From a virus: a DNA stretch of 64,000 nt. The translations under genes and the position numbers were made by a program. Location: positions 1 through 64,000 of the IMG/VR virus record IMGVR_UViG_3300025117_000031; one strand, 5' to 3'. The notes under the pieces are model-generated. The model saw nothing but the letters and a program-made list of their open reading frames with translations, did no database searches and was not told the origin of the DNA. Below, one piece after another: positions 783 to 37,590 of the stretch. How positions within the stretch are numbered: the first letter of the stretch is position 1; each line of letters starts with the position of its first letter.

Positions 783-2171
783 CCCATTTGAGACTTAAAC
801 CATGAACCCATTAGTTAACACAGTTGCTCAATTCCTGCCCATGAGGAAGTTTCGTTCTGGCCGTAGGGCCAGAACCAGAGCTTTCTTGACAGCAGGCTAT
901 CCCCGCCAGGGCGGCGGTTCTAAGATTAATGGCTGCGTTGATGTCTCGGTCGTGGACAACCCCACAAACCTCACAAACCCATTCTCGGATGGACAAAGGC
1001 AACGGTCCTTCTCGTCTTGTTCCACAGTCGGAACACAGCTTGGAAGAAGGGAACCAGCGGTCGGCAACAATGATTTCACTGCCGGCAAGCGGAGCTTTAT
1101 ACATAAGCTGACGCCTGATTTCCGACAAGGCAGCATCCGCAATCGACTTGGCAAGATGATGATTTGCCATCATCCCCTTGACGTTCAAGTCCTCGATTCC
1201 AATCCGACGAAAGTCTCGGACCAGCCGAGCGGTAAGCTTATGCGTTACGTCTTTGCGGATGTTGGAAATCCGTTCATGCAGCCGTCCAAGCTTCGTTTTA
1301 GTCTTCTGCCAATTTCTTCCTCCTATGACGCGACGAGACATTTCCTTGTTGAATCGTCGCAGTCTGGTTTCATGAGCACGCAGAATGCGTGGAGCCTCGA
1401 CCCGTTCTCCCGTAGAAAGCACGGCAAGGTCTCGGAGCCCGAGATCCACTCCAACCGCTTCTTGGGTTTCGCAGCGATGGGGATAGGACCAGGAGTCGGA
1501 GACTTGAATTTGGACCGAGACGTACCAATGACCGGCATGTTTCGTAAAGTGAGCGGACAGGATTTTACCAGGAAATCTTATCTCTTGTCGAGTGCGGACC
1601 CAACCAAGCTTGGGAATCTTAACTCTTCGGCCGTCAAAGCGAAGGGCTCGACCTTCAACGGCGAAGGACATTTTGCTTTGTTTCTTCGACTTGAAGCGGG
1701 GATAGCCGGGCTTTTGGCCAGATTTGATACGGCGAAAGAAGTTGGAGAAAGCATTGCCGAGGTTGGACAACGCCGTTGCAGCAACAGCCCACGGCAATTT
1801 TGCCATCCAAGGAAATTCGGTGTTTTTGCAGGCATTCAGCTCGGTGTTAAGACTGATCCAAGAGGGCTTTCCTTCGGCTTCGTATTGAGTTTTCCAACGG
1901 TCCAATCCCCAGTTGTAGACGAAGCGAGATGCACCAGCACAACGTTCGAAAAAGGTTGTTTGGATGTTATTTGGAACGAGTCGAATACGTTGACTGAGGA
2001 TAGTTATAGGGAGGCTTTTTTCAGAAGTTGTAGAAAGACGTTTCGACACATTATAAATATAGCACACGAAGTGAAATATGTTGACTTTTTTGTAAATTCA
2101 TTATTTTTAATAAGAGGAGAGAGCTTAAACTCATGTCGGCTGATGATTTCGTGGTTTAAATCTCGAACGGG
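783..2171 (-). mobile_element. TnpB-only element bounded by imperfect terminal inverted repeats
   Basis: Left end CCCATTTGAGACTTAAACCATGAA versus reverse complement of right end CCCGTTCGAGATTTAAACCACGAA. No tnpA inside. The same ends occur on four mini-copies. Confidence 0.85.
811..2049 (-). CDS. tnpB: TnpB RNA-guided endonuclease (IS607/IS605 OrfB type)
   Basis: N-terminal HTH (RFVYNWGL); RuvC motifs GVDLG, IEDLNV and HDRDINAA; zinc ribbon CSDCG/CEVCG. Start placed at GTG 2049 by analogy with the ATG of the mini-copies. Confidence 0.95.
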   Translation of the reverse strand: MSKRLSTTSEKSLPITILSQRIRLVPNNIQTTFFERCAGASRFVYNWGLDRWKTQYEAEGKPSWISLNTELNACKNTEFPWMAKLPWAVAATALSNLGNAFSNFFRRIKSGQKPGYPRFKSKKQSKMSFAVEGRALRFDGRRVKIPKLGWVRTRQEIRFPGKILSAHFTKHAGHWYVSVQIQVSDSWSYPHRCETQEAVGVDLGLRDLAVLSTGERVEAPRILRAHETRLRRFNKEMSRRVIGGRNWQKTKTKLGRLHERISNIRKDVTHKLTARLVRDFRRIGIEDLNVKGMMANHHLAKSIADAALSEIRRQLMYKAPLAGSEIIVADRWFPSSKLCSDCGTRREGPLPLSIREWVCEVCGVVHDRDINAAINLRTAALAGIACCQESSGSGPTARTKLPHGQELSNCVN

Positions 2172-2187
2172 ATGGTGTTCTCCTATT

Positions 2188-2263
2188 GCCCTGGTAACGG
2201 CCACGGCTTCTACCCGTGTGTACCGTAATTGGAATAATGCAGGTTCGAGCCCTGCCCAGGGCG
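2188..2263 (+). ncRNA. D-arm-less tRNA-like RNA with TCT in the anticodon-like loop
   Basis: Acceptor GCCCTGG/CCAGGGC; stem-loop CACGG-CTTCTAC-CCGTG; T-arm GCAGG-TTCGAGC-CCTGC; only 7 nt where the D arm should be. Confidence 0.6.
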
Positions 2264-2310
2264 TTATTATAAATAGTGGAGTCGAACTCGCTTTTGTATA
2301 AAAAATACAA

Positions 2311-2338
2311 GTCGGGAGTTCAAGCCTCTCCGGGCGCG
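2311..2338 (+). pseudogene. 3' fragment of a tRNA (T arm and acceptor strand)
   Basis: GTC-GGGAG-TTCAAGC-CTCTC-CGGGCGC-G; pairs with 766-772. Confidence 0.6.
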
Positions 2339-2356
2339 TAGGAAACGGAGGATAAA

Positions 2357-2553
2357 ATGTCTCTTTATGATTGGTTTGATCTCACAATTATGAGCATATA
2401 CGGGCATATGATATCGTGCAAAAGACAGGAGTGTGGCCAGAGGGTTTTCTTCCAGACTATATTGAAATTCCTGTCTTATGGTCTGTAATGTTGGCTGCCA
2501 AGATGGCGGATGCTTGGGTAGATTATATGTTACAGAAGCAGTCGGGCGCGTAG
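2357..2553 (+). pseudogene. Small gene with an apparent 1-nt frameshift, flanked by 15-bp direct repeats
   Basis: GGAGG RBS, then ATG 2357 (MSLYDWFD). It continues in another frame as HNYEHIRAYDIVQKTGVWPEGFLP...QSGA* ending at 2553. CGGGCGCGTAGGAAA occurs at 2331 and 2543. Confidence 0.5.
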
Positions 2554-2583
2554 GAAAAGAAGTGCGAGCAGAAAGAATTAAAA

Positions 2584-3594
2584 ATGGAAACAGAAAAACA
2601 AATTCTTGAGTTCACTGTTCCAGAGTCTTTGTTTCCAGGTGATCTTGCAGAAGCAAAAAAGAAATTTCACGAATTGGCTCTTTATTGGCATCCTGATAAA
2701 ACAACTGGTGATGCCAAGGTAATGTCACATATTACGGAGCTTTATAAAGAAGCAGTAAGGCTTCTAGAAACTGGGAAATGGAGAGGTTCTAGTTTTCTTG
2801 ATTTGAAAAAGAAGGGTGGTGGGAGTATTAGGTTCAAATACCTAGTTAGCAGAAGCTTCGAATTGGGGTACGTTTATATTGCGAATACCCACATTTCATA
2901 TTTAATTGATAAGAAGTTCGAACAATTTTCAAAAAGAGCAGAGAGAACTATAAAAAATCTTCATTATGCAGATGATAAAATGAAGAAAGAGATGTCGAAA
3001 ACCCTTCCAGAGTCAATAAAAGTATTTGAACTTGAAGATGATAAACTTCTTTTAACGATTCCAAAGTCAAAAAACCTTGTTCCGTTGCGAGAAGTTTTTA
3101 GCTATTACAAGGGAAAGATTGAACCAGTTCATGTAGCATGGATTGGGAGTGGATTGCACAACATAGCGTGTTATTTGGAGTGGGCTAAGATAGTTCATGG
3201 AGATATTTCTCTTGATTCCGTTTTTATTTCTCCTTCTGATCACAGCGTGTCTTTGTTGGGAAGTTGGTGGTTTGCTGTTCCAATAGATGAAAAGATTTCT
3301 ACGTTGCCAATTAGAACATACAAGTATCTGCCATGGGAGGTGAAATGTAACAAAATTGCTACACCTCTAGTAGATCTTGAGATAATTAGGGCTACTGTTC
3401 GAGAGTTGTTGGGAGATATTACAGGACGTTCTTTATCGTCAAGCCCCATGGTCGATCTGGTGCAGATTCCGGTGGACGACACGGCTCAGCGTGCTTACAA
3501 GTTGTGGCATGAGGCGTTGCAAAAAACATTTGGAAAACGCAAATTTGTCAAAATGGAGCTTCACGTCGATGAAGCTTACAAACAGGGAGAATAA
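2584..3594 (+). CDS. J-domain-like (HPD) plus protein-kinase-like fold protein
   Basis: AKKKFHELALYWHPDK N-terminal motif; VHGDISLDSVFI kinase-like catalytic loop. Confidence 0.7.
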   Translation: METEKQILEFTVPESLFPGDLAEAKKKFHELALYWHPDKTTGDAKVMSHITELYKEAVRLLETGKWRGSSFLDLKKKGGGSIRFKYLVSRSFELGYVYIANTHISYLIDKKFEQFSKRAERTIKNLHYADDKMKKEMSKTLPESIKVFELEDDKLLLTIPKSKNLVPLREVFSYYKGKIEPVHVAWIGSGLHNIACYLEWAKIVHGDISLDSVFISPSDHSVSLLGSWWFAVPIDEKISTLPIRTYKYLPWEVKCNKIATPLVDLEIIRATVRELLGDITGRSLSSSPMVDLVQIPVDDTAQRAYKLWHEALQKTFGKRKFVKMELHVDEAYKQGE

Positions 3595-3596
3595 TC

Positions 3597-4523
3597 ATGG
3601 GAAGCGGAAGATTTTCACCAACAGACTGGGCTTCTTATTCTAGCTCGCGTGGTTTGCACAAGGCTTCGACGACTGCGGCTCACATCTACAAGTCCTCTTC
3701 AATGAACGATGATTTAGATCCAAAGAAAATAAAGAATGGGCTGCGAGAATCTAGGGATTCCGCAGACAATCCCAACTCTACTCCAATTATCGTTGGACTA
3801 GACGTTACGGGTTCAATGTCTCGTATTTTGGAAATAATGGCAAAAAAGGGACTGAAAACCCTGTTCGAAGAGATTTATAATAGAAAGCCGGTGCGCGATC
3901 CTCATGTTCTTTGCGCTGCAATCGGCGATGCATACTGCGATAATTCTCCGCTTCAAGTTTCTCAATTTGAAGCAGATATTCGTATCGCAGAACAGCTTGA
4001 AAAGCTTTATCTTGAGGGCGGCGGCGGAGGAAATGATTCCGAAGGATATTCTCTCTTGCATTATTTTGCTGCGAAGCATACCTCGTGCGATGCCGTTGAA
4101 AAGAGAAACAGAAAGGGTTATTTATTTACTGTTGGCGATGACGGACCAACTCCAAAGATTCTTGTTGAGCATGCCCAATCAGTCTTCGGGGATACTATCG
4201 GCGAAGACATTTCCGGGAAACAGCTTTTGACAATGCTCACACGAAATTGGGAGGTTTTTCATTTGAATGTTGCTGAAGGTGGCTCATATGATAGTTGGGT
4301 TGTAGACCGCTGGAGAGCGTTGCTAGGAGAGCGTTCTTTGACTTTGACCGATCACACCAAGATGGCTGAAGTTATTGTTTCGGCAATTCAAGTTGTGGAA
4401 GGTTCTAAAGCAGACGACGTTGCTGATTCGTGGGATGGCAGTACGGCCATGGTTGTTCATAAAGCAATCTCTGGCCTAACAAGCTCCGCATCCTCAGACT
4501 CTCAAGGGCTGATTACTCTATAG
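3597..4523 (+). CDS. vWA-domain protein
   Basis: MIDAS-like DVTGSM, EGGGGGN and TVGDD. Confidence 0.8.
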   Translation: MGSGRFSPTDWASYSSSRGLHKASTTAAHIYKSSSMNDDLDPKKIKNGLRESRDSADNPNSTPIIVGLDVTGSMSRILEIMAKKGLKTLFEEIYNRKPVRDPHVLCAAIGDAYCDNSPLQVSQFEADIRIAEQLEKLYLEGGGGGNDSEGYSLLHYFAAKHTSCDAVEKRNRKGYLFTVGDDGPTPKILVEHAQSVFGDTIGEDISGKQLLTMLTRNWEVFHLNVAEGGSYDSWVVDRWRALLGERSLTLTDHTKMAEVIVSAIQVVEGSKADDVADSWDGSTAMVVHKAISGLTSSASSDSQGLITL

Positions 4524-4536
4524 AAAGAAGGGTGCA

Positions 4537-5676
4537 ATGCGACTGTCGGCTGTCATTGGAACTAATTATGGCGACGAAGGCAAGGGACACGTTGTTGATT
4601 GCTTGTCGGATAATAAAAGCCTTGTAATTAGATTCAACGGCGGGGCTCAAGCTGCTCATACTGTAATTAAATCTGATGGCAGCCGACACGTCTTTCATCA
4701 CTTTGGCTCAGGCACTTTTAATGGGGCTGCTACTTACTTCTCCAAGCATTTTATTGTAAATCCTGTTTTGTTTTCTCAAGAGCTTCTATCTCTGCCACCA
4801 GACCCAATTGTTTTGGCAGATCCACGATGTCTTGTAACCACACCAGTTGATATGATTTTAAACCAAACAATTGAAGCTTTAAGAGGCAAATATAAACACG
4901 GGAGTTGTGGCCTTGGTATCAACGAAACTGTTACCAGGAGCGAGGCAGGCTTTGCTATTGTTTTTAGGGATCTTTCAAACAGATCCCTTTTGAAGAAAAA
5001 GATCGAATTGATTGTTAATTTCTGGCTTCCCAGGAGGATGAGGGAGCTTAACATTATAGAAGATTTAGAGCAAGTTGACAATAAACAAATGTGGGAACAG
5101 TATTACGAAGACTGTGCCATTATGACTGCACGATGTGAATCTTTCTTATGGCCTCAATCTTCTACAAAACTACCAAATTACGAACACTTTATTTTTGAGG
5201 GGGCTCAGGGTCTTTTGTTAGATGAATACGGTAAAGACTTTCCCCACGTTACGAGGTCTAGGACGGGGTTGACAAACGTTTTGGCTATGTTAGAAGAAGC
5301 TAGAATTAAAGAGATGCTTGATATTTATTATGTTACGCGACCTTATCTTACAAGACATGGGGCGGGACCGTTAGAAAACGAATTAAAAGAAGCTCCATAT
5401 GGAATTGTTGATATTACAAACCAACCAAATATGCATCAAGACATATTAAGATATGCGTGGTTAGATATAACCAAAGTTGGAACAACTATTTCTCACGACT
5501 ATAAACAAACTACTTATCCGCTGAATGTGATTCTAGCCATTACTTGTCTTGACCAGATGCCGCAAGAGCTTCAGGCACTTTTGTATGGGAAAATGAAAAT
5601 GTTTACTCACGAAGCTTTTATACACAACCTAGAAGACGCTGTACAGGCAGACTGTGTAAGGGTTTTTAAGTATTGA
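4537..5676 (+). CDS. Adenylosuccinate synthetase-like protein (divergent copy)
   Basis: GTNYGDEGKG, RFNGGAQAAHT, FEGAQGLLLD, RPYLTRHGAGP. Confidence 0.85.
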   Translation: MRLSAVIGTNYGDEGKGHVVDCLSDNKSLVIRFNGGAQAAHTVIKSDGSRHVFHHFGSGTFNGAATYFSKHFIVNPVLFSQELLSLPPDPIVLADPRCLVTTPVDMILNQTIEALRGKYKHGSCGLGINETVTRSEAGFAIVFRDLSNRSLLKKKIELIVNFWLPRRMRELNIIEDLEQVDNKQMWEQYYEDCAIMTARCESFLWPQSSTKLPNYEHFIFEGAQGLLLDEYGKDFPHVTRSRTGLTNVLAMLEEARIKEMLDIYYVTRPYLTRHGAGPLENELKEAPYGIVDITNQPNMHQDILRYAWLDITKVGTTISHDYKQTTYPLNVILAITCLDQMPQELQALLYGKMKMFTHEAFIHNLEDAVQADCVRVFKY

Positions 5677-5726
5677 CATCTTTCGTTTTTCCCGGTAAGA
5701 TGGAGTTTTAGAAAGAAGGTTAGATA

Positions 5727-6425
5727 ATGCCAAGAAAGAATTCCGATCTCGCAATCCGCATGAAGGGATACGAAAATATCTCGAGACTTCATCTAACCCC
5801 CAGAATGCCGATGATTATTCGAATAGATGGAAAAGCTTTCCATAGCTATACAAGAGGTCTTGAGTTCCCTTGGGATATGAATCTTCATTTTGCCATGACG
5901 GAGACAGCCAAGGCATTAATTAAAAGTATTCAAGGTGCGAGCTTGGCCTATCTTCAAAGCGATGAAATCTCTGTTCTTTGCACAGATTACGAAACTTATA
6001 AAACTTGTTCTTGGTTTGATAAGAATGTGCAGAAGATAGCTTCTGTTTCGGCTTCTATTGCAACACTTGCCTTTAATAAAAACGCACCACACAAAAACAA
6101 AGACGCTCATTTTGATTCAAGGTGCTTTGTCTTGCCAAGAGAAGAAGTTGTGAATTATTTTATTTGGAGGCAACAGGACGCAACAAGGAATTCTATTGCC
6201 TCTCTTGCCCAATCAAAGTTTTCTTCAAAGGCTCTTCACGGAAAGAATACGGGAGAGATGCAAGAGATGTTGTTTTCTGGTTATGGAATTAACTGGAACG
6301 ACATTGAAACGTGGAAAAAGAGGGGCTGGTGTGTTGTGGAAAGCGGCGTATCAGATGAAGAAATCCCAATCTTTTCTCAAGAACGAGGATATATCCAAGA
6401 GCTTGTGGACGTCGAAGAAGAATAA
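5727..6425 (+). CDS. tRNA(His) guanylyltransferase Thg1-like 3'-5' polymerase
   Basis: IRIDGKAFHSYT, YLQSDEIS, FDSR, WRQQDATRNSI; TTGACA-N17-TAAGAT promoter upstream. Confidence 0.92.
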   Translation: MPRKNSDLAIRMKGYENISRLHLTPRMPMIIRIDGKAFHSYTRGLEFPWDMNLHFAMTETAKALIKSIQGASLAYLQSDEISVLCTDYETYKTCSWFDKNVQKIASVSASIATLAFNKNAPHKNKDAHFDSRCFVLPREEVVNYFIWRQQDATRNSIASLAQSKFSSKALHGKNTGEMQEMLFSGYGINWNDIETWKKRGWCVVESGVSDEEIPIFSQERGYIQELVDVEEE

Positions 6426-6443
6426 ATATATATAATTATATAT

Positions 6444-6803
6444 ATGTGTGTGTGCGCAATGAATTACTTCTTGCCAATAAGCTATTTTAATGAAGCAAAC
6501 GAAGGGTTGTATTGTGCCAAGAGACAGTTGAAAGGGTTTATTATTGGTACAGGAACGGCGAAAAAGATTTCTGATAAGTGTTACAGCGATTTTAAAGAAT
6601 GTAATCCTAACTTTGTTGGAGTATCCGAAGAGCAGGAGGAAATTGCAGATCTCTACGGTTGCCCCTATGGTCTTGCAATAGAAATGAACAAGCTCACATA
6701 CAAACTTTCCTCCGAAGGACATTATAATTATTTGGGACTAAAAGGAGAAGTAAAGAAAACATGGCCGTTTCTTTTGGACAAGGAAGAAGAAAATAAAGAT
6801 TGA
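6444..6803 (+). CDS. Hypothetical protein
   Basis: ORF track; start uncertain. Confidence 0.55.
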   Translation: MCVCAMNYFLPISYFNEANEGLYCAKRQLKGFIIGTGTAKKISDKCYSDFKECNPNFVGVSEEQEEIADLYGCPYGLAIEMNKLTYKLSSEGHYNYLGLKGEVKKTWPFLLDKEEENKD

Positions 6804-6834
6804 CAAGTCTCCTGTGCTCTGCTATTATTATCTT

Positions 6835-7045
6835 GTTCGCGACTAGGACCGATAAGCCGGGAGTAACGGCAAGAAGCGGTCCCCCCTGTCGGGAGACGCG
6901 GGAAGTCTCAGGGCAGTCTGCCTATACCAGGCTGTGTAAGTTCCTGAGCAGGCATGTGGTGTATCACATAGCACGCACGCTAGACATGAGGCATTGGGTT
7001 CCCATAGTTGCTAGCTGAAGAGCCGGGTGAAATTCCCGGCTTTTG
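6835..7045 (+). ncRNA. Putative structured non-coding RNA
   Basis: Promoter TTGACA-N17-TATTAT at 6800-6828. GC-rich nested hairpins (GGACCG/CGGTCC, GAGAC/GTCTC, ATGTG/CACAT, GCTAG/CTAGC) end in GCCGGG-TGAAATT-CCCGGC-TTTT. No credible ORF or RBS. Confidence 0.5.
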
Positions 7046-7116
7046 CCGTTTTAGGGGATTGACTTCTTTTTTTAAGTATGCTATTGTTATTTTATCTTCT
7101 TTCGGAGGAAGAAAAG

Positions 7117-7284
7117 ATGGAAAAGGTGATTGTTTATCGCAGTTCTCAGGAAGCAACACAAGATTTTTATCTTTGGGAGGAAGGTGGAATCGTTTGGGTT
7201 GGGGCAACGATGGTTTTTGTTTTCGTTGCTGTGATTGTTTGGGCAAAGATCTCAGAGTGGATGAACCGTCGAAAGCGGAAGTGA
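7117..7284 (+). CDS. Small membrane protein
   Basis: GGAGGA RBS; hydrophobic stretch. Confidence 0.55.
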   Translation: MEKVIVYRSSQEATQDFYLWEEGGIVWVGATMVFVFVAVIVWAKISEWMNRRKRK

Positions 7285-7434
7285 GGTTTAAGAAAGTGAG
7301 CACCAAGAAGAATCGGAAGATGGGGAAGATTCGCAATCAAATTGCGGTGGTTGCTCACTTTCGCAAGGCGGGTTCTTTTGTGGACAAGAAGAAGAATGAA
7401 AATAAAAACGCTTGCAGAAACTGGAGGGATTGAC

Positions 7435-7626
7435 ATGTTCGACAGCATCCTCTGGACGCAGATTATTTTTTTTGTTTCTTTCTTTGCTTCGATGTGGAGT
7501 TTTCTTTGGTTTGTTGTAAAGTTTGTTGACGCTGTGCTCTATAAAAAGCATGCCATTTTCAATGGCCTTAGTTATTTTCTTTGTCTGTCTACTGCTATTT
7601 GGTTCAGCATCCTTGTTTGGAAGTAA
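7435..7626 (+). CDS. Small membrane protein
   Basis: GGAGG RBS, MFDSILW start, two hydrophobic segments. Confidence 0.55.
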   Translation: MFDSILWTQIIFFVSFFASMWSFLWFVVKFVDAVLYKKHAIFNGLSYFLCLSTAIWFSILVWK

Positions 7627-7694
7627 TTTCTTTATTGACTTCTCCGCAAGTTTCTCATATAATGCTCGAAGAAATCGAGAACAAGGAGAAAAAG

Positions 7695-8060: not shown

Positions 8061-8133
8061 TTTAATTGTTGACTCTTTGCACAAATTTCTGTTATAATCA
8101 GCTCATCAACTTCGGAAACTAAGGAGAAAGAAA

Positions 8134-8490: not shown

Positions 8491-8517
8491 AACGCTTTGC
8501 TCCAATAGGAGGATAAA

Positions 8518-8700: not shown

Positions 8701-8825
8701 TTGAGTTTAAGGGGCGGCTGTATTTTTACAGCCTACGTTTACGAACAGCGTGATTGTGGTAGTCGCCGAAGATCCCACAGCCTCTTAAGTTTTAAGTATC
8801 TTCCCAACAAAAGAAAGAAAACAAA

Positions 8826-9899: not shown

Positions 9900-11327
9900 A
9901 TGGGAAACGTTACAATTAAGAAATTTCAAATTCATAAGCCGATTGGACTTTCTTGGCAGGAGTTTGGGAAAAAGATTCGTTTACTGTCAGAACAATGTTC
10001 AGACATAAAAAACACTTATGCTGTAGAATATTATTTAGCAGATAGAAAGAATTTAGAAATAGAAAACAAGCTGCTCTCGTCTTTTGAATTTAAAAACGGC
10101 AAGTATGATAAATCTTCAAAGGAGGGGTGTCTTAAGTCTAAAACCTATCATACTCTGGTTAAACCAAAATATCTCTTGATTTCTACTCCGATTATGGAAG
10201 GACTTAAAATACAAGTTGGAGACTTTTATGTGAGACACAGGTTTGCAACTTTAGTAAAAAAAGAAGAGTCTGTTTTGTTCTTTAAAAGAACAAGCCCAGT
10301 TCCCTTCCCCAAGGGCAGTTATGAACTCTTTTTGTCCGAGGAGAAAGAATTTTGTGTTAGGCTTACAACAGGGTCAAAGAGTGTTCCCAAAGAGGAAAGA
10401 AAAATTAGCTTTGTTTTAAAAAGTTCAAAGCTTCCTGCTTTTCTCAAAAAAGAAATGAAGAGTATGTGGGAAGGGAGGCTTGGAACCGGAGAGTGCTATT
10501 TGCAGATAAAAGATAATAAGATTTTCTTTCTTGTGTCTTGCAAACACCCTCCGGTTGTCACAGAGCTAGACTCAAATGTTATTATGGGAATTGATTTGGG
10601 GATAGCGCATCCGTGGACTATTGCTTTTTCTAATTCCGAAAAGCGGGACTTTTCAATGGATGCTTCTTTAATACGAAAAAATCAAACCCAATTTCGGGAA
10701 AGAAGAAGAAGTATTCAAAGAGGATATAAAAACTATGAAGAGCGCAAAGGAAGAGGACGAAAGAAAGCCCTAGAGCCAACGCTTTCAATCGAAAACAGGG
10801 AGAGTAGTTGGGCAGATACAATGAACCACAAAATGTCTAAAGCATTGATTAACCGAGCAATAAAAGAAGGAGCTAAAACCATTCAAATGGAAAACCTTTC
10901 TGGCATTACTGCCGGGAAAAAGCCAAAGTTTCTTAAAAATTGGAGATATTTTGATCTTCAAACAAAGATAGAATATAAGGCAAAGATTGTGGGAATTAAG
11001 GTTGTGAAGATAAATCCTCAATACACGTCTCAAAGGTGTTCAGAGTGTGGAACGATCCACGAAGATAATCGCAAGACACAAGAAAAATTTGTTTGTGTTT
11101 CTTGTGGATATACTGCAAACGCAGATTATAATGCAGCAAAAAACATTGCTACAAAAGACATAGAAAATATGATTAAGGAATATTGCATAAAAAACAAACT
11201 TCCTTACCGTGGATTAAAGGATGATGAGTATGAATGTGAGGAGACTGGTACGTCGGAGACGGAAGAGTCTTCAACAAGACGAGAAGAAGAAAAAGCTGTT
11301 GACAAAAGCATAGAAGATGTGCTATAG
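9900..11327 (+). CDS. cas12f: Compact type V effector, Cas12f (Cas14/C2c10)-like
   Basis: 475 aa. RuvC MGIDLG, IQMENLSGI and NADYNAAKNIA; YFDLQTKIEYKA and YTSQRCSECG...CVSCG typical of Cas12f1/TnpB. Adjacent tracr-like RNA and CRISPR array. Confidence 0.85.
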   Translation: MGNVTIKKFQIHKPIGLSWQEFGKKIRLLSEQCSDIKNTYAVEYYLADRKNLEIENKLLSSFEFKNGKYDKSSKEGCLKSKTYHTLVKPKYLLISTPIMEGLKIQVGDFYVRHRFATLVKKEESVLFFKRTSPVPFPKGSYELFLSEEKEFCVRLTTGSKSVPKEERKISFVLKSSKLPAFLKKEMKSMWEGRLGTGECYLQIKDNKIFFLVSCKHPPVVTELDSNVIMGIDLGIAHPWTIAFSNSEKRDFSMDASLIRKNQTQFRERRRSIQRGYKNYEERKGRGRKKALEPTLSIENRESSWADTMNHKMSKALINRAIKEGAKTIQMENLSGITAGKKPKFLKNWRYFDLQTKIEYKAKIVGIKVVKINPQYTSQRCSECGTIHEDNRKTQEKFVCVSCGYTANADYNAAKNIATKDIENMIKEYCIKNKLPYRGLKDDEYECEETGTSETEESSTRREEEKAVDKSIEDVL

Positions 11328-11625: not shown

Positions 11626-11897
11626 GTCTCCCCCGCGTGTGCGGGGATGGACCTGGCAAAAGCGTGGTCGAAGGCTAAAAAAAGATGTCTCCCCCGCGTG
11701 TGCGGGGATGGACCAGCCCCGGTGCCAACATTTTTCCCCCGTCCTACGTCTCCCCCGCGTGTGCGGGGATGGACCTTCTGCCAAGAGCACAGAAAAAAGA
11801 TCCTGAAAGTCTCCCCCGCGTGTGCGGGGATGGACCTTCTTCTAATGTGCAGCCTAATAGCGTCAACGTGTCTCCCCTGCGTGTGTGGGGATGGACC
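11626..11897 (+). CRISPR. CRISPR array: 5 repeats of 28 bp and 4 spacers of 33 bp; type I-E-like repeat
   Basis: GTCTCCCCCGCGTGTGCGGGGATGGACC at 11626, 11687, 11748 and 11809; degenerate trailer copy at 11870 (2 substitutions); constant 61-bp period. Confidence 0.97.
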
Positions 11898-11928
11898 CCG
11901 AAACTTCCGAACAAGAGAGAAAAAAGAA

Positions 11929-22572: not shown

Positions 22573-22853
22573 GCTACTTAAGACTTGAACTGTAAATTCG
22601 TTGGTCAACACGACTGCTGACAGATGAAACAACGAATTTGTAAAAAAAGTCAACATATTTCGCTTCGTGTGCTATATTTATAGCATGTCGAAGTTTCGTA
22701 CTACGACGTATGAAAGAACCGCCGCCTTGGCGGGGATAGCCTGCTGTCAAGAAAGCTCTGGCTCTAGTCGTAAGACCAGAACGAAACTTTCTCTTGGGCA
22801 GGAATCGAGCAGCCGTGTTAGCTAAAGAGTTCATGGTTTAAGTCTCGAATGGG
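22573..22853 (+). mobile_element. Mini TnpB element (MITE-like), copy 2
   Basis: Promoter end fused to the omegaRNA end of the 783-2171 element; ends ...TTAAGTCTCGAATGGG; left inverted repeat degenerate. Confidence 0.85.
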
Positions 22854-24988: not shown

Positions 24989-25357
24989 ATCTATGTCTCC
25001 GGGGATCGGCCAAGCATCAGGAGGGAGCTATACCCGTTTCCCATACGGGGATAATTTTTACACAGATCCGTCCCCTTCTGCCGTCCTCTTCTGCCTTCTG
25101 GCTTCAGCAAAGTTCACAGCTAGCTCACAATAAGATTAAATAAAGTATCACATATCCCGCGCCCTCGCACCCACAATATCCCACATTGTCTTAAAAAAAA
25201 GATCATGTTCCGCCTTTTTTGAAGAATTCCGGAGGTTTCTTGGCGAATTTGAAAAAAAGATATGGATGTCATGGGACGGAAAAATCCGGGGGAATATTTT
25301 GGTATAGATTGCCCAAGGAGGGATGGCAAGGAAGAAAATATAAAAAAGAAGTATATT

Positions 25358-25551
25358 CCCCTTCGTATGTTATATTTATAGTATGTCGAAGTTTCGTACT
25401 ACGACCCATGAAAGAACCGCCGCCCTGGCGGGGATAGCCTGCTGTCAAGAAAGCTCTGGTTCTGGCCTTGCGGCGAGAACGAAACTTTCTCATGGGCAGG
25501 AATCGAGCAATCATGTTAACTAAGGAGTTCATGGTTTAAGTCTCGAAGGGG
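25358..25551 (+). mobile_element. Mini TnpB element, copy 3 (left end further deleted)
   Basis: CCCCTTCG joined directly to the promoter segment; intact omegaRNA end ...TTAAGTCTCGAAGGGG. Confidence 0.85.
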
Positions 25552-28960: not shown

Positions 28961-29006
28961 TAATGTATTTGGGAAGTTTAACAGTATTCTTCAACGTTCT
29001 TTTATT

Positions 29007-29402: not shown

Positions 29403-29407
29403 TTAGG

Positions 29408-30482: not shown

Positions 30483-30714
30483 GGATTACCTTCCTCACTT
30501 CTTTTTCGGCCTTTTGATTAAAGGACTTCCAAGCCATGGCTCCACCGCCACCTCCTGAAATAAGGAGGGCTGTGACAAGATAAACAATCTTTCTTCGAAT
30601 GCTGCGGATTACACTCCGCACGGTTTCAATCAAGATAAGAAAAAAAACAACTCCCAAGACAATGGAGATTGTTTGCGGGGAAAGACCCGAGAAAGCATTA
30701 ATAATTTCTTGCAT
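30454..30714 (-). CDS. Small membrane protein
   Basis: Hydrophobic segments; GGAG RBS. Confidence 0.55.
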   Translation of the reverse strand: MQEIINAFSGLSPQTISIVLGVVFFLILIETVRSVIRSIRRKIVYLVTALLISGGGGGAMAWKSFNQKAEKEVRKVIHERKTNGSN

Positions 30715-30800
30715 GGTCGATTCTCCGAAAGGTTTATAGAACAATACCGTATTTTAAGAAAGAAGTCAAGTTCTTTCTCTCCTTGTGATAGTCTTGCAGC

Positions 30801-31082
30801 ATGCCGAAAAGATGTCAGTTTTATAAATTTGATGGATATTTTTGTCATTTTATCGGGGAAGACGGAAAGAAATATTCCGGAGAAAAAAGCTTTTTTGAAT
30901 TAAGAAGAGGTTCTGCGAAGAAGCCTTTAACACGATATGAAATAAGAGATCTTTCTGGAAACCAAATTCTTTCAACAGGAGATTCTTTTTCTATAGCTCT
31001 TAGTAAACTTGGATATCTTCTTGAGAACGGAGAAGACCCAGAGTTTTATCTGCAAGAAAAAGAAGCTAACGAATCCAAATAA
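30801..31082 (+). CDS. Hypothetical protein (convergent paralog of 31066-31386)
   Basis: Shared F..EDGKK(Y/F).G and LGY(L/I)L(E/D). Confidence 0.6.
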   Translation: MPKRCQFYKFDGYFCHFIGEDGKKYSGEKSFFELRRGSAKKPLTRYEIRDLSGNQILSTGDSFSIALSKLGYLLENGEDPEFYLQEKEANESK

Positions 31083-31386
31083 TGGGCACACCTTCGTCGT
31101 TTGATCTAAGTGGTTCTTCGTCAAGAATGTAACCCAGGAGAAGAAAGGCATATTTAAAAGTATTTCCTCCTCCACTTTCTAGCATATAACAAGTTTGAGT
31201 AGAGTTTTTATAGAGTTTACCTTCAAACTTTTTTCCATCTTCTGCCGAAAACTTGTATATATAATTGGAACTTAGGCTGTTATTTTTCTCTTTAATATGT
31301 TCCATTCCGGCAAAGATGCAGCTTGTTGGGACATTTTTCTTTTTCATTTTCAAATATAATTGAATTTGTATTATCTCCACAGTCAT
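31066..31386 (-). CDS. Hypothetical protein
   Basis: See paralog; start uncertain. Confidence 0.55.
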   Translation of the reverse strand: MTVEIIQIQLYLKMKKKNVPTSCIFAGMEHIKEKNNSLSSNYIYKFSAEDGKKFEGKLYKNSTQTCYMLESGGGNTFKYAFLLLGYILDEEPLRSNDEGVPIIWIR

Positions 31387-31573
31387 AACGAGTACAGTTA
31401 TAGCAATCTTGATAACCCTTTCGACACTTGGACAGAATTTCTTTATTTACCGGCTCTATTTCGGTAAGTTCAAGAAGAAGGGGGTTTGGTCCGGATCTAC
31501 TACAAAGAAGGCTTGAGCAGCCTTTGCAAGGTCCAACGGACTTTCTCGCTAGTTTGTAAATTATTTTAGACAT
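31292..31573 (-). CDS. Cys-rich hypothetical protein
   Basis: ORF directly after ankyrin copy C. Confidence 0.55.
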   Translation of the reverse strand: MSKIIYKLARKSVGPCKGCSSLLCSRSGPNPLLLELTEIEPVNKEILSKCRKGYQDCYNCTRYDCGDNTNSIIFENEKEKCPNKLHLCRNGTY

Positions 31574-31978
31574 TTAAACTCCACTTCTTGACGACTTCTG
31601 GTGTCTTTTTGTTATAGTGGTCGGGATCTTGTTGATAAAGAATCTTCACGACCTCAACATGGCCTTTTGCCGAAGCCCATCGGATGGCAAGGTTGTTACC
31701 GGCCGTTGGATCAACCCTCTTGTCGGAAAGAAGAATCTTCACGACCTCAACATGGCCTTTTGCCGAAGCCCATCGGATGGCAGTGTTGTCATCGGCCGTT
31801 GGATCAATCCTCTTGTCGGAAAGAAGAATCTTCACGACCTCAACATGGCCGTTTGCCGGTTGTCATCGGCCGTTGGGTCGAACACATCCATCGACAGAAT
31901 TAAAGCCGCTTCCTTGTCTTTGCCTTTGTTGCAAAGCTCCCAAAAAAGTCGTTCCCCTCTGTTCTGTTCTCTTCCCAT
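31566..31978 (-). pseudogene. Ankyrin-repeat protein, copy C, frameshifted
   Basis: Same promoter and N-cap as copies B and D. The first repeat lacks ~19 nt of the variable segment (GACAAC|CGGCAAAC at ~31858), breaking the frame. Confidence 0.85.
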
Positions 31979-32019
31979 TTCGGCCGAGGATAACAAAAAT
32001 AAAAGAAGATGTCAATCCC

Positions 32020-32733
32020 CTACTTTAGACATACTCGCCATGTTCGAAGGATTTCAATAAAAACCTCTCGGAACACAATAAGATGATTATCAAATTCTTC
32101 TTCTTCTTTGGCGATTTCAAATAAAGTCCTTGATGAGAACAAAAGCGACGAAATCATCGAGTTTCTTAGGTTAAATATGTTGTCCAAGTCTAACAACAAA
32201 GCCCAAACGATGTTATTAATAACAACTTTAAGTAATTGTTCGCTTTTTGCTGGACTGGAGGGGTATTTTAAAGCAACCGCATCCGCATTAACGTTGAAAT
32301 AAAAGTCTTCTATTTTTTGTTTCGAAGCACGACCAGCAAGCCAATCTCTCAATAATTCCGGGGCTTTAGTGTAATCTACATCTTTACTGATGTCTTTTAC
32401 GATATTCGTTCCAAATCTATGCGAGACATAAGAAAAAACACTTTCCAGGATTGTTATGCACATTGCAACCTGGAAATCGAATGGAATCAATTTCCCAGCA
32501 AAAACAATAGCTTCAAAACTATCTATTTTTTTGTTTTCCAAGATGTCCATAACCGATATCTTCTTATCTAGATAAGAAGAACAAACCTCATCTAGGGTTT
32601 CGTTATTAAACAGTTTTTTTAAGTATTCATCATTATTAGCCAGCTTTTTTAAGTATTCAGCAGTGTGTCTTTTCTGACTCACTTTTCTTTCCCTCTCGGT
32701 ACTTTCTCCCAGCAAAAATACCAATAATCCCAC
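32020..32733 (-). CDS. Hypothetical helical protein
   Basis: 237-aa ORF. Confidence 0.65.
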   Translation of the reverse strand: MGLLVFLLGESTERERKVSQKRHTAEYLKKLANNDEYLKKLFNNETLDEVCSSYLDKKISVMDILENKKIDSFEAIVFAGKLIPFDFQVAMCITILESVFSYVSHRFGTNIVKDISKDVDYTKAPELLRDWLAGRASKQKIEDFYFNVNADAVALKYPSSPAKSEQLLKVVINNIVWALLLDLDNIFNLRNSMISSLLFSSRTLFEIAKEEEEFDNHLIVFREVFIEILRTWRVCLK

Positions 32734-32828
32734 ATGCGACTACAAGTCCAACACCCATTATAATTAGGTTTGCTTTACAGAAACGAGAAATCATTGTATT
32801 CCCCTAGTTAGTATAGAGCCTATATAAC

Positions 32829-33116
32829 ATGACTGTAGTCATTTTGCAAGCAATATTTATATTTGTTGGTATTTTCTTTACAGACTTTTTAAACGCATTA
32901 TACGTTGCCGCAGTAGCAAAAAACAAAAAGTTCAGTGCAGCAACCTTATCTTTTGTTGTTGTCCTTGTTACTGGCTTGATAGTAATAGAATATACAAAGA
33001 ATCCGTGGTTTATTATACCAGCAGCGATTGGAGCTTTTTTTGGAACTCTTGCTTCGGGATATGTAAGAATCAACAAGCCAAAAGAAAAAGATTCTAAGGA
33101 GTCTGAGAATTCGTAG
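32829..33116 (+). CDS. Small multi-pass membrane protein
   Basis: Three hydrophobic segments; AIGAFFGT. Confidence 0.65.
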   Translation: MTVVILQAIFIFVGIFFTDFLNALYVAAVAKNKKFSAATLSFVVVLVTGLIVIEYTKNPWFIIPAAIGAFFGTLASGYVRINKPKEKDSKESENS

Positions 33117-33486
33117 GAAACAGCTTATCTAATCTTTTCTGCAGTTCGGACTTCTTTAAAACAAGACCATTCATAAGCCTCGCCTTTGCCTTTCCTTTTC
33201 TTTTTTGGTCCTCTTGCCACTCGTTGATGAAGTTTAATACTCCAACACAGCTCGGACCATCCTCAGTTAATACGAATGGCACAATTTCGCATGACTTATA
33301 AAGTTCCAAGTCTGTAATTGCAAGGTGGCACTTAAGAGAGCCTAGACTTCTCCAGAATTTTCCATTTTCTTCAAATCTAGGGGAGATTCCTCCATTGGAA
33401 TATAAGAGAGTTTTTAGGTCTCTTATCTTCCAAATGGTTTTTTCTTCTGGCTTGTGTTTTACTTTATAGCGGGGAGAGGACTTCAT
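33094..33486 (-). CDS. Hypothetical phage protein
   Basis: KIRD..T.LYS.GG..P.F...GK.W motif. Confidence 0.65.
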   Translation of the reverse strand: MKSSPRYKVKHKPEEKTIWKIRDLKTLLYSNGGISPRFEENGKFWRSLGSLKCHLAITDLELYKSCEIVPFVLTEDGPSCVGVLNFINEWQEDQKRKGKAKARLMNGLVLKKSELQKRLDKLFPTNSQTP

Positions 33487-33487
33487 C

Positions 33488-34702
33488 TTACTTCTTGTAG
33501 AGGAGGAGGGTGCCCTTCTTCAGCTTGCGATTAGCCGAAGTAGAAAGAATAAACAACTTGTAGTTCTTAAGGTTTCCAGGATGAACTTGAACTCTCTGAT
33601 GTTGCGGAATTCCAGCAAGAGTTCTTGCCTGGTCTCCACCATAAACCGCCCCTGTGGTTGAATCCATGATAAGAAAATCTTTTGTCTCTTGGACGGTTTC
33701 GCTCTTTGTCAGTTGATAGTAGCCTCGTCCCTTCGAGAAGCTGAGTCGGTGGGGAGTAAGCGAGAAGCTTTCTTCAACGAAATCCTTGATTGGCATATCC
33801 TTGTGAACGGCCCAACGATAGAAGTCTCCCGACAGATCGTCCAGTCTTTGGTTAAGAACCTTTGTGTTAACCTTGCTAAGGTCTGCTGAGAAGAAGTTTC
33901 TTACGCTATTGTTTCCCTTGCTGCGAGCCTCATAATAGTTGTCGTAACCTGTGGTGACGGACCTAGAAAGAACTTCCATCCCTCGTTCTGTTTGGTCCCA
34001 CTCTTGAATATTCCCCGGAAGGGCGCCAAACCGTTGAACGTAATGGGAATGACCACGAGGCACAGAAAAAACAAAGGTCCAGCGATCTGTTGCGTGTAGT
34101 TCGCCCATAAGCGAGGAGACTCTAGCAACAGAATATTGAGTTGAAGAGTTTTCTTCCCCGTCTGTAATAGTGATTACAAGAAAGCTATGATTTAGCTTGT
34201 CGGAGTAGAAAGAGTTTTTATATTCCTGGGCAACAAGACCCACCGCATCGCGAAGAGAAGTAGACGAACCGTTGGCGTCATAATCTCTTTGTGTAATGTG
34301 TTGAATCACTGAAGAATCAGAGGGAGGAACAAGAAGGCGAAGAGTCCGGTCAAAAGTATAGACCGACATAATCGTTCGCTGACCTGACTTTTGAGCTGAG
34401 CGCTTGATTGAATCAATTTGCTCATTAATTACTTGAATTGCCTTAAACCTCAAGCCTTGCATGGAACCAGAAGAATCCATCATAAGAGCAATGTGATTGA
34501 CGCATTCGGGCTTTGGAGGAGTTTTCTTCTTTGTGGGCTTGGCAGGCGTCTTTGCTGACGTCGCAAACGAAGCCTTTAGCTCTCGGTCTTTATGAAAACG
34601 CCTTGCGCGAATGCCAGTTGTTGAAATACAGCGATTCCCAGGCTCCGCTCCACAGACAGGACACTTAACGGACATGATTTCAGTTGCAGACAGACGTGAC
34701 AT
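33488..34702 (-). CDS. vWA-domain protein with N-terminal zinc finger
   Basis: CPVCGAEPGNRC...H; MDSSGSM, TSLRDA, ITDGEEN. Confidence 0.85.
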   Translation of the reverse strand: MSRLSATEIMSVKCPVCGAEPGNRCISTTGIRARRFHKDRELKASFATSAKTPAKPTKKKTPPKPECVNHIALMMDSSGSMQGLRFKAIQVINEQIDSIKRSAQKSGQRTIMSVYTFDRTLRLLVPPSDSSVIQHITQRDYDANGSSTSLRDAVGLVAQEYKNSFYSDKLNHSFLVITITDGEENSSTQYSVARVSSLMGELHATDRWTFVFSVPRGHSHYVQRFGALPGNIQEWDQTERGMEVLSRSVTTGYDNYYEARSKGNNSVRNFFSADLSKVNTKVLNQRLDDLSGDFYRWAVHKDMPIKDFVEESFSLTPHRLSFSKGRGYYQLTKSETVQETKDFLIMDSTTGAVYGGDQARTLAGIPQHQRVQVHPGNLKNYKLFILSTSANRKLKKGTLLLYKK

Positions 34703-34721
34703 TTTTTCTCTCTCCTTGTTG

Positions 34722-36053
34722 TTATAGCAGATCTTCGACGTCTTGATAGTTGTCGTTATCCTTGGCGATTCCTTCGAACAGCTTAAAAAGCCAACCCTTG
34801 TGCTTTAGAATATCTGTTCCACTTTGACTTTCATATCTAACACAAACGCCCTCTCGAATGTGACGAGGATCGAGGGGATCTGGGCCTTGAGTAAGCTTTT
34901 CGCACTTTTCCAAAAGAGCATCGAAATTCCCATCATAGAAAAATGTCTCATAGACGTGTACAGTTTCGAGTCCCATCTTGTTACAGCGCTCGACGACTTG
35001 GCCCCAAGGCAATTCATAAACATCTCCGTCTTCATTTGTCTGCGTAATACGATAAATAAAAAGACGGTTCTGCTTTAGTGGGTCTTCTGCGTTGCAACCA
35101 TAGGTGTAAAGAATTTGTTCCCCATACTTCTTTGCAACAGAAGGCTCCTTGGTTGTAGAATGAGGAGGCATAATGGAGGCGCCGGTATCGGTAAAGCCGA
35201 CGATTTCTCCATAAATTGTTTCTCCCTTGCGAACTCCACAAGAAGAAAGAAGCTTATGATACTTCTCGCGGTAATTACCACCATGGAAAGGGTCCTCGAA
35301 AGTTCGCTCTCCGTGATTTAGAATTGTACGACGAGTCCCCGAAACGTAAGAATATTCCCTCTCTTCAAACTTGGGACCGCCAATCTTTTCGGCAACTCGA
35401 TTCCAAATTAGCTTTGGAAGAGAAAGCTCCTTGCGAGAAAAAGTGTAAGAAAATCGCATACTTGTGCCGTGGCACTTGGAAGAGATATGGATCAACGCTC
35501 CGACTGGAATTTGCCCAGAGCAGAAGCGAATTTGCTTAGTCTCAAAGTGTTCCTTAAACAAGGGATACTTCTTTTCCTTGGCAAGGCGCTTCTTCCAAAG
35601 AGAAGAAATCTTATTCTTATGCTTCTCGCTAGAAAGACTTCGCCGAGAAGCCTTTGGAATATACTTGAAGCAAACAGACTTTCCGTTCAGCTCCGTAAAG
35701 GTGTAGTTCTCGGAAAGAACGTCGGTCTTGATTCCGGTCCATTCAACAAAAGAAAGAGGACACCAAAATCCTTCGGAGATTTCTCCTCGGAACTTTTGAT
35801 CTCGAACTCGGCCATTCTTATCAAAATAACCACCCATCTTTTCACCAGTATCAGGATGGGTTTGATAAAGACGATTAGTAACAAGCATGTCCTTCGACAA
35901 AGCACCGTCGGAAGGAAAGAAGATTCCCATCTGTCCTTCTGAATTATCAAGTCCCACAACAACCTGATTACCAACGACAGTTGCTAGCTGCACCCTATCG
36001 GCATTGGGATGCTTGCGGACATTCTTCAGCGGGGCAATAATTGCTTGATACAT
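34722..36053 (-). CDS. RNA ligase (N-terminal OB/tRNA-binding domain plus Rnl2-like nucleotidyltransferase)
   Basis: KHPNADRVQ; KCHGTS, YGEIVG, REGVCVR, LKHK. Confidence 0.85.
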   Translation of the reverse strand: MYQAIIAPLKNVRKHPNADRVQLATVVGNQVVVGLDNSEGQMGIFFPSDGALSKDMLVTNRLYQTHPDTGEKMGGYFDKNGRVRDQKFRGEISEGFWCPLSFVEWTGIKTDVLSENYTFTELNGKSVCFKYIPKASRRSLSSEKHKNKISSLWKKRLAKEKKYPLFKEHFETKQIRFCSGQIPVGALIHISSKCHGTSMRFSYTFSRKELSLPKLIWNRVAEKIGGPKFEEREYSYVSGTRRTILNHGERTFEDPFHGGNYREKYHKLLSSCGVRKGETIYGEIVGFTDTGASIMPPHSTTKEPSVAKKYGEQILYTYGCNAEDPLKQNRLFIYRITQTNEDGDVYELPWGQVVERCNKMGLETVHVYETFFYDGNFDALLEKCEKLTQGPDPLDPRHIREGVCVRYESQSGTDILKHKGWLFKLFEGIAKDNDNYQDVEDLL

Positions 36054-36067
36054 TTTATTCTCCAGTT

Positions 36068-36346
36068 CCCTTTCGAGACTTGAACCGTGAACTCCTTAGT
36101 TAACACAGCCGCTCGATTCCTGCCCAAGAGAAAGTTTCGTTTTGGCCGTAAGGCCAGAACCAGAGCTTTCTTGACAGCAGGCTATCCCCGCCAGGGCGAC
36201 GGTTCTTTTTATCGTCGTAGTATAAAACTTCGACATACTATTAAGATAGCACACGAAGTGGAATGTGTTGACTTTTTTGCAAATTCGTTGTTTCATCTGT
36301 CAGCATTCATGTTAACTAAGGAGTTCGTGGTTTAAGTCTCGAATGG
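36068..36346 (-). mobile_element. Mini TnpB element, copy 4
   Basis: At least 36-bp inverted repeat at both ends; in-frame mini-ORF MSKFYTTTIKRTVALAGIACCQESS. Confidence 0.9.
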
Positions 36347-36405
36347 TATGACAAAATTTACATGAGCATAACAGAAGTAAAAGAAGATGTCAACAAGAAA
36401 ACAAT

Positions 36406-36681
36406 TTATTCTTCTGCGAGAGTCTTTAAAACCTTCTTCATCTTATTAAAAACTTTCTTATACACTTCTAGTTGTTTCTCTAACTCTTTCTTTTCTCTTG
36501 TCAGCTCGGCAATTAAATCCAAAGCCTCCATTGGAGTTGGGGGATATTGAGAAACCGTAACTTGTGGAGTAAAATCAACTTCCGGATAAAAAGGAGTTGA
36601 TATCGCATATTTAGTAATTGGAGTGTGTGCGGCATATACAGCAGTAAAAAGACCAGTAGAATCAATATAACTTGACGACAT
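36406..36681 (-). CDS. Hypothetical coiled-coil protein
   Basis: GGAGG RBS. Confidence 0.6.
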   Translation of the reverse strand: MSSSYIDSTGLFTAVYAAHTPITKYAISTPFYPEVDFTPQVTVSQYPPTPMEALDLIAELTREKKELEKQLEVYKKVFNKMKKVLKTLAEE

Positions 36682-37096
36682 TTTTAAACCTCCGAAGCTA
36701 TTATATCAGAACCCGTTGAAAGTGTGAATAGAAAAACCGCTTGTCTTCTGTTTTTCCCTGTGGTAAGATTGGGGTTAAGAAACTCTATTTATTAGGGAGG
36801 GTTAATTCGTTGACTTGGTTGTTTTGTTTAATTTTATATCTTATCTTTGTGTATTTATTCAATTTTCTTCGTCTAGTCATAGACTGGAAGACTTGTTTAT
36901 CTTTTTATGACTTCTTGGAATATTCTCAAACTGCTATAAATTGGTGGGGCTTCATTATTTCTCCTTTGCTTTTCCCAGGTTGGGTTATAATTACTATTTT
37001 GGACGGTTTGTTTAACGATGCCGAAAAGTGAAAAAGTTGTTGAATTTGCTTCGGAAGTATGATAGAGTCGATTAAACTTTTGAACGGAGAAATAAA

Positions 37097-37288
37097 ATGA
37101 ATGAGAATGAGGTTAAGGAATGGCTGTCGGCTCTTGCGGATGCAACACTTTTCTCGAATTCTGGGATTGACATGGAGCGTCTTGCAACAAATTTTGTTGC
37201 TGGAACTCTGTTTTTCAATCCGACATACGGAGGCAAGAAGTACGATAACGTCTTCGATAAACACTTCTTTGAGGCTCCAGAGGCATGA
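37097..37288 (+). CDS. Hypothetical protein
   Basis: GGAG RBS, own promoter. Confidence 0.55.
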   Translation: MNENEVKEWLSALADATLFSNSGIDMERLATNFVAGTLFFNPTYGGKKYDNVFDKHFFEAPEA

Positions 37289-37312
37289 GCGAAGAACTAG
37301 AAAAGTTAATAT

Positions 37313-37590
37313 CCCCTTCGAGGCTTAAACCATGAACTCATTAGTTAACATGAATGCTCGATTCCTGCCCATGAGAAAGTTTCGTTCTCGCCGCAAGGCC
37401 AGGACCAGAGCTTTCTTGACAGCAGGCTATCCCCGCCAGGGCGACGGTTCTTTTTATCGTCGTAGTATAAAACTTCGACATACTATAAATAGAGCACACG
37501 AAGTGGAATGTGTTGACTTTTTTGCAAATTCGTTGTTTCATCTGTCAGCAGCCGTGTTAACTGATGAGTCTTGGTTAAAATCTCAAATGG
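37313..37590 (-). mobile_element. Mini TnpB element, copy 5
   Basis: Near-identical direct repeat of copy 4; appears to interrupt a small ORF beginning MSEELEKLI at 37285. Confidence 0.9.

Follow-up and report, generated by a model that had tools for sequence, protein, structure and literature searches.

The first 64 kb of the virus record IMGVR_UViG_3300025117_000031 of IMG/VR (a single contig of 153,920 bp, here called phage A) were analysed and are referred to as the window. The record, of groundwater origin, has 39 % GC and a CheckV completeness of 85 %, and it is a phage, as seen from its baseplate wedge genes, RNA ligase and sugar-nucleotide enzymes. It carries an insertion sequence that encodes the nuclease TnpB and no transposase, as intact copies (F1 to F4) and, in the window, as miniatures from which most of the tnpB gene has been deleted (M1 to M4). 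The copies in the window are given below, where scaffold and guide refer to the putative omegaRNA, the guide RNA of TnpB.

783–2171, minus strand: F1, intact TnpB-only element, left end at 2171 and right end at 783, 90–93 % identical to the three other intact copies
811–2049, minus strand: tnpB coding sequence of F1, 412 codons with a GTG start, with Pfam OrfB_IS605, a Cas12f1-like zinc ribbon and a helix-turn-helix (HTH) domain
22573–22853, plus strand: M1, 281 nt, both ends present, scaffold at 22715–22853, guide from 22854
25339–25551 (start approximate), plus strand: M2, no left inverted repeat, same deletion junction, scaffold at 25413–25551, guide from 25552
36068–36347, minus strand: M3, 280 nt, scaffold at 36068–36206, guide from 36067 downward, TGTCAT at 36348–36353
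37313–37591, minus strand: M4, 279 nt, scaffold at 37313–37451, guide from 37312 downward

An initial annotation had described F1 as an intact TnpB element, and this was confirmed. The F1 protein matches the structures of ISDra2 TnpB (E = 4e-73), and the RuvC D-E-D triad and the zinc finger by which an OMEGA-system nuclease is recognised are intact in all four copies. The other three were located outside the window, at ~74.7–76.04 kb, 95,671–97,057 and 146,623–147,997, when the element was used as query against the complete record; the mutual identity of the four is 90–93 % and the tnpB frame is open in each. Phage A thus has eight copies in 154 kb, four intact and four miniature. The right flanks of the five copies in the window are as first listed, but the proposal that a single TnpB is provided with five guides has to be replaced by one of eight guides for four TnpB genes. 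Among the intact copies dN/dS is 0.12–0.21 and, judged from these values, tnpB is under purifying selection. The tnpB copies have 51–53 % GC compared to 39 % for the phage, while the genes of relatives have 59–68 %, a contrast that suggests a fairly recent arrival from GC-richer phages.

The close homologues of this TnpB are mostly of groundwater metagenome origin. The relatives with 60–73 % TnpB identity, all of them TnpB-only, come from phage contigs and share the right-end motif. In two relatives (L060, 2265–2504, and L059, 676–837) a small ORF with a faint ribbon-helix-helix match lies inside the element just upstream of tnpB; it is absent from the phage A copies. The nearest cellular TnpB (47 % identity, Alicyclobacillaceae, locus L039) lies directly behind a MerR-resolvase TnpA, in an element whose ends are not inverted. 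By sequence relatedness the TnpB lineage is nearest to the IS607-associated TnpBs.

A second carrier, phage B (IMGVR_UViG_3300025073_000058, the same phage also being present as Ga0208958_1000265; 28 % complete), was found with an exact-pattern scan and a protein scan. It contains one intact copy and three miniatures. The two phages have in common the TnpB element, ankyrin cassettes and one match of ~340 bp (87 % identical, outside the window), and no other DNA. The ankyrin-repeat cassettes have a 93-bp period, are dispersed in phage A (1–380, 27687–28134, 31576–31869 and 43588–44222) and are 90–95 % identical to those of the otherwise unrelated phage B. Over both phages there are 12 distinct copies of the element, with base-precise ends and unrelated flanks.

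The four miniatures were found at the sites of the initial annotation and have the equivalent in-frame deletion it reported: codon 11 is fused to the last 36 tnpB codons, giving an ORF of 46 codons. The junction is identical in all seven miniatures, four in phage A and three in phage B. Most of them are ~280 nt long and retain the left end, the leader and the last 139 nt of the element; the junction lies 4 nt before the first hairpin of the scaffold, which is thus retained as a whole. Since the seven have the same junction in phages that otherwise share only ankyrin cassettes, one deletion gave rise to a lineage, and this has plainly spread as a unit, reaching seven or more sites in the two genomes. 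The left end is missing from two miniatures, and these look unable to move. Upstream of one of these, M2, there is a TGTCAT (25268–25273) 139 nt from the deletion junction, compared to 140 nt in M3; the sequence between is unrelated to the left end, and the motif may be there by chance or the left end may have been replaced. The guide of M3 spans the ribosome-binding site and start codon of an RNA ligase gene.

Ends, target motif and movement

The ends of F1 are as follows.

783–820, minus strand: right inverted repeat, most of the last hairpin of the scaffold, containing the tnpB stop, with an antisense ATG on the other strand
2135–2171, minus strand: left inverted repeat, in a decayed hairpin form
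2172–2177, minus strand: left-flank motif, candidate target-adjacent motif (TAM), in the looser form ending in CAT

The same sequence had been reported inverted at both ends. The repeats are real (37 nt at 89 % identity within M3, up to 48 nt at 90 % between copies), but not general: M2 has no left repeat, that of F1 is decayed, and the left end exists in two forms. One form is a near-perfect subterminal hairpin, present in F1, F2, F3 and two phage B copies and absent from F4, M1, M3 and M4, whereas in the other the right end, which itself has a hairpin, is present as an inverted copy of 48 nt. The left hairpin of F3 folds as DNA at −16.6 kcal/mol (z = −8.3) and shows compensatory differences from that of a phage B copy; the inverted-copy form (five copies) gives no fold on the top strand. 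The initial explanation, duplication of an IS607-like right end as an inverted repeat, fits this second form, but the first is a subterminal palindrome of the IS200/IS605 type or of the type of the palindrome-associated transposable elements (PATEs). A second guide RNA from the left repeat, also raised initially, is unlikely, as only the last hairpin is present there. An outward-facing ribosome-binding site in the repeats was considered and dropped, as it is not conserved at the left end.

In agreement with the initial annotation, no target-site duplication was found in nine copies. The left and right flanks of one copy are no more alike than flanks of different copies, and a 2-bp A[AT] match in five of the nine is at chance level. 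The left junction, by contrast, has the motif T-[G/C]-[T/C]-C-A-[T/A] in 9/9 scorable copies (TGTCAT in four), which in its looser form is YCAW. F3 separates two baseplate wedge genes which, in 29 related phages, lie directly next to each other. Read on the other strand, the CAT of its motif is the native start codon of the gene downstream, the N-terminus of which aligns with its homologues. The motif is therefore part of the target DNA, and TGTCAT/YCAW is proposed as a candidate TAM. The search for empty sites in related phages, suggested initially, gave none at the DNA level: the only other carrier, phage B, shares the ankyrin cassettes and the element, and the relatives were found via a baseplate gene ~47 % identical in protein, so that only gene order could be used for the comparison with the 29 phages.

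Among the relatives, the first 13 nt inside the left border of L060 (73 % identical) repeat its right flank exactly (2227–2239 and 3723–3735). A similar border repeat is seen in L071 (~17/20) and a weaker one in L061 (~10/15), and none in the family of phages A and B. These repeats could be a duplication of the translation start region of the target gene.

The initial annotation noted the absence of a transposase and proposed a search for a serine recombinase or DDE transposase. The phage A record has no match to resolvase (serine recombinase, PF00239), Y1 transposase, rve, DDE_Tnp_1, tyrosine integrase or IS110-type families, and phage B none to resolvase (PF00239); a serine TnpA is present beside the 47 %-identical cellular relative. 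It is possible, though we regard it as rather unlikely, that the element moves in the manner of IS200/IS605, by a host Y1 TnpA acting in trans on single-stranded hairpins and inserting 3' of a short motif, with the apparent inverted repeat being a by-product of similar palindromes. The conserved 4–6 nt just 5' of the left end, the missing duplication and the strong DNA fold of the hairpin-form left end with its compensatory differences between copies would all be explained, and PATEs show exactly such properties. Such movement does not account for the left end of the five copies in which it is an inverted, non-folding copy of the right end, there is no Y1 gene in the phage A record, and the nearest cellular TnpB is accompanied by a serine TnpA.

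The structured RNA at the right end

The part of the element that all miniatures retain at the right end, and the flank next to it, are in F1:

783–921, minus strand: omegaRNA scaffold, 139 nt, with hairpins at 5–19, 26–88 and 91–134 and a G-rich tail, overlapping the last 36 tnpB codons
763–782, minus strand: right flank, predicted guide, first base A

When five relatives (60–73 % TnpB identity) are added, 19 of the 39 pairs of the consensus fold are compensatory. In the consensus fold 95.6 % of the alignment cells pair, compared to at most 46 % when the partners are slid by 1–3 columns, and none of 500 shuffles reached the observed values. The compensatory hairpin change of the initial annotation is real: it is a C-G to U-A change at pair 54/61 of the second hairpin, present in M1 and independently in the intact copy F2. 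Numerous one-sided changes in the stems retain G-U pairs, which argues for a structure of RNA rather than of DNA. The synonymous rate in the intact copies is 0.09 in the 36 overlapping codons and 0.29 in the rest of the gene. The first 90 nt of the scaffold diverge by 7.4 % among the miniatures and by 5.8 % among the intact copies, compared to a synonymous divergence of 0.21–0.37, and the scaffold is as conserved in the miniatures as in the intact copies.

The 139-nt block is, judged from its pattern of substitution, a conserved structured RNA, and it is read here as the omegaRNA scaffold, the transcription and processing of which are predicted. At the sequence level it has what defines an OMEGA RNA: it overlaps the 3' end of tnpB and terminates at the right end, with the guide coming from the flank. 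Its length is close to that of the published IS607 reRNA scaffold (144 nt), and no Rfam family matches it. The first base of the right flank is A in 12/12 copies, and in five relatives the flank starts with AT. In M1 there is a promoter-like site at 22650–22678, with 9/12 matches and a TG extension.

The miniatures had been proposed to be guide cassettes. They are indeed deletion derivatives that keep a complete structured RNA at the right end, each with its own flank as a possible guide, but the idea as such has already been published for PATEs. Alternatively, the miniatures could be inert relics which keep the right end for its transposition signals and are conserved because they are young or subject to gene conversion. 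Part of the omegaRNA survives in any deletion of a TnpB element that retains the ends, variants are shared mosaically between copies, two of the miniatures have no left end and are seemingly immobile, and the promoter evidence is weak. We nevertheless think that relics are an unlikely explanation. The deletion stops just short of the first hairpin and leaves the whole scaffold rather than only the 37–48-nt end, and divergence is lower in the 90 nt that lie outside the repeat (7 %) than within it (12 %). Moreover, the changes in the stems preserve pairing, including the G-U wobble that is relevant only in RNA, and the lineage persists in two phages, outnumbering the intact copy in phage B. Retention of the scaffold, the RNA-type constraint and persistence of the lineage fit well with use of the miniature omegaRNAs in trans, although they do not prove it.

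The antisense reading frame

The strand opposite to tnpB contains one further feature, in F1:

802–2301, plus strand: stop-free antisense frame in the tnpB codon register, from the right end through the left end

The frame opens at the ATG inside the right repeat and reaches the left end; it has 445–500 codons in all four intact copies and in six of seven relatives, and in the miniatures, too, it is open end to end. The tnpB gene of F1 has no TTA, CTA or TCA codons, whereas 9–15 would be expected, and these codons are avoided in the seven relatives but not in 16 outgroup TnpBs. Over eight independent lineages a single antisense stop is seen, compared to 41 expected from a context-specific codon model which correctly predicts the outgroup TnpBs (35–49 % identity). 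Codon usage was ruled out as the cause, since the large genes of phage A use the three codons freely (16 times per 412 codons) and the outgroup TnpBs have them as expected. A hidden transposase on the antisense strand was also rejected, and the antisense product does not look like a functional protein: there is no Pfam match, no constraint at the amino acid level and no Atlas neighbour, and the AlphaFold mean pLDDT is 28. On this codon evidence the antisense frame is kept open by selection.

At five loci (F3, the intact copy of phage B, L057, L061 and L071) tnpB is flanked by two co-directional phage genes to which it is in reverse orientation, with the upstream stop 1–13 nt from the right end and the downstream ATG abutting the left end. 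In F3 the antisense frame begins 28 nt beyond the upstream stop, and 27 nt separate its end from the downstream ATG. The frame probably lets ribosomes cross the insert and hand over to the next gene, in a way similar to that proposed for MIRUs (mycobacterial interspersed repetitive units). These are mobile inserts at start codons with an ORF that is coupled to the flanking gene, and they disturb expression little (PMC12548453). The insertion at start codons is alike, and the predicted relay of translation via an internal ORF would be; here the bridging frame is 445–500 codons long and antisense to a real gene, and the spacings in F3 are ~27–28 nt compared to −4.

Three further features of the window lie outside the element. 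A tRNA-like gene with anticodon UCU (2188–2263, plus strand; Rfam 32.5 bits, above the gathering score) is located 17 nt from the left end of F1; its D arm is nearly absent, its extra arm is 17 nt long and it was missed by ARAGORN. Another tRNA (49117–49190, minus strand), found by ARAGORN and below the Rfam gathering threshold, has the anticodon TCA and would read UGA. A CRISPR-like array of five repeats with a 61-nt period (11626–11906) is found downstream of a 475-codon ORF (9900–11327).

Relation to known elements and biological meaning

PATEs (Dyall-Smith et al. 2011; Meers et al. 2023) derive from IS605-type/IS1341-type elements (Haloquadratum, Geobacillus ISGst), and Meers et al. (2023) proposed them as omegaRNA-only minimal elements served in trans by TnpB. 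Like the present miniatures, they are short, protein-less derivatives of TnpB elements by internal deletion, and they have several homogeneous copies, no target duplication, a short 5' target motif and often an omegaRNA that needs TnpB in trans. The miniatures are too short for a transposase and carry an internal deletion, as defined for PATEs, whereas the terminal inverted repeats that PATEs by definition lack are found in most copies; the phage host, a TnpB nearest to those linked to IS607 and the absence of a detected Y1 transposase are also different. The TnpB-only elements of the IS1341 group (IS200/IS605, with ISDra2 TnpB as the reference) have the same protein architecture, catalytic triad and omegaRNA over the 3' end of the gene. 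As in that group, tnpB occurs without tnpA and inserts 3' of a short motif without duplication, but one form of the left end is an inverted right end, and the copy density (8 in 154 kb of phage) is unusual.

The IS607 affinity claimed initially stands for the protein but not for the ends and target. With IS607 elements (ISXfa1, CboIStron and the Alicyclobacillaceae L039) the element shares TnpB relatedness and the lack of duplication; the RNA scaffold is likewise of ~140 nt, the right end runs out in G residues and the first base of the flank is fixed. Published IS607 elements, whose ends are neither inverted nor palindromic, have (T)GGG as their target and GG at each junction. In the present element a serine TnpA is lacking and inverted or palindromic ends are found; on the strand on which the right end is GGG/GGGG, no GG is present at the left junction, where the flank is TGTCAT/YCAW. 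Movement by a serine TnpA in trans would agree with the MerR-resolvase TnpA directly upstream of tnpB in the closest cellular relative (47 % identity), with the final G run and the fixed flank base, as reported for ISXfa1, and with the missing duplication. It is quite improbable, however, as inverted sites would give inversion and not excision, the target motif differs from the published one and neither phage A nor phage B has a resolvase. The element fits the rules of IS200/IS605 and PATEs better than those of IS607, with the inverted-copy left end as a misfit. Capture by a DDE-type inverted-repeat transposon, by which the miniatures would be true MITEs (miniature transposable elements with inverted repeats), has a precedent in eukaryotic Fanzor2 elements with inverted repeats and would explain the 37–48-nt repeats and the perfect 13-bp direct repeat at the borders of L060, but it is very improbable given that the target duplication of such elements is found in 0/9 copies, that no rve, DDE_Tnp_1 or IS110-type gene is present in the phage A record and that the repeat coincides with an RNA hairpin conserved across the clade.

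We consider it fairly probable that the copies are non-autonomous TnpB-only insertion sequences of phage genomes, with omegaRNA miniatures served in trans, homing and an antisense relay. The intact copies would encode an active RNA-guided nuclease, and the omegaRNA would end at the right end with the adjoining flank as its guide. A single in-frame deletion would have given a miniature of ~280 nt with both ends, leader and scaffold, which then spread as a unit. The omegaRNA of every copy, intact or miniature, may load onto TnpB from the intact copies. The target of the complex would be the corresponding empty site, composed of the left-flank motif and then the right flank, in a co-infecting genome or in one from which the element has been lost, and after cleavage repair from the occupied allele would restore or spread the element; a homing role of TnpB is known from the literature. 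Jumps to new sites would need an enzyme not encoded by the phage that recognises the hairpin or inverted-repeat ends. In phage operons the stop-free antisense frame would let ribosomes translate across a backward insert between tightly coupled genes, which would limit the harm.

Several points weigh against these non-autonomous, trans-served elements. The TAM and exact ends were derived from 9–12 junctions and one gene-order comparison, no empty allele having come to light at the DNA level. The search for a mobilising enzyme was negative, and the two phage records are incomplete (85 and 28 %). Expression of the miniatures is a prediction; a promoter-like site that reaches the threshold of the scan is present in one miniature only, and no enrichment of such sites relative to shuffled sequence was seen. 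The low divergence of the miniatures could reflect gene conversion, as variants are shared mosaically. F4 is co-directional with its neighbours, so that not every site requires the antisense frame.

The element represents an unusual form of a selfish element that is already known, rather than a system of a new kind. It is set apart by its inverted or hairpin ends, by a target motif next to start codons, by the high density of copies in a phage and by an antisense frame under selection. As omegaRNA-only elements served in trans had already been proposed, what appears to be added here is an antisense frame kept stop-free throughout a clade. As the end of the motif is ATG read in reverse complement, the element could target the junction immediately upstream of start codons, and the traits could together be a stealth design for tightly packed operons, with an end-to-end antisense relay and miniatures that multiply the sites defended by one TnpB. 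This we suggest only tentatively, as being on balance doubtful.

Most tnpB genes occur without a transposase, and it is still an open question by what means elements of this kind persist and move. The base-precise copies and a miniature lineage that moved as a unit provide clear substrates for excision, TAM and trans-guide assays, and with eight guides served by four TnpB genes one phage offers a test case from nature for RNA-guided homing between viruses in the same cell. The antisense frame suggests a way in which an insert lying backward between coupled essential genes need not silence them. Should the inverted ends also make movement possible in the absence of a classical TnpA, TnpB-only elements would have a new way of spreading.

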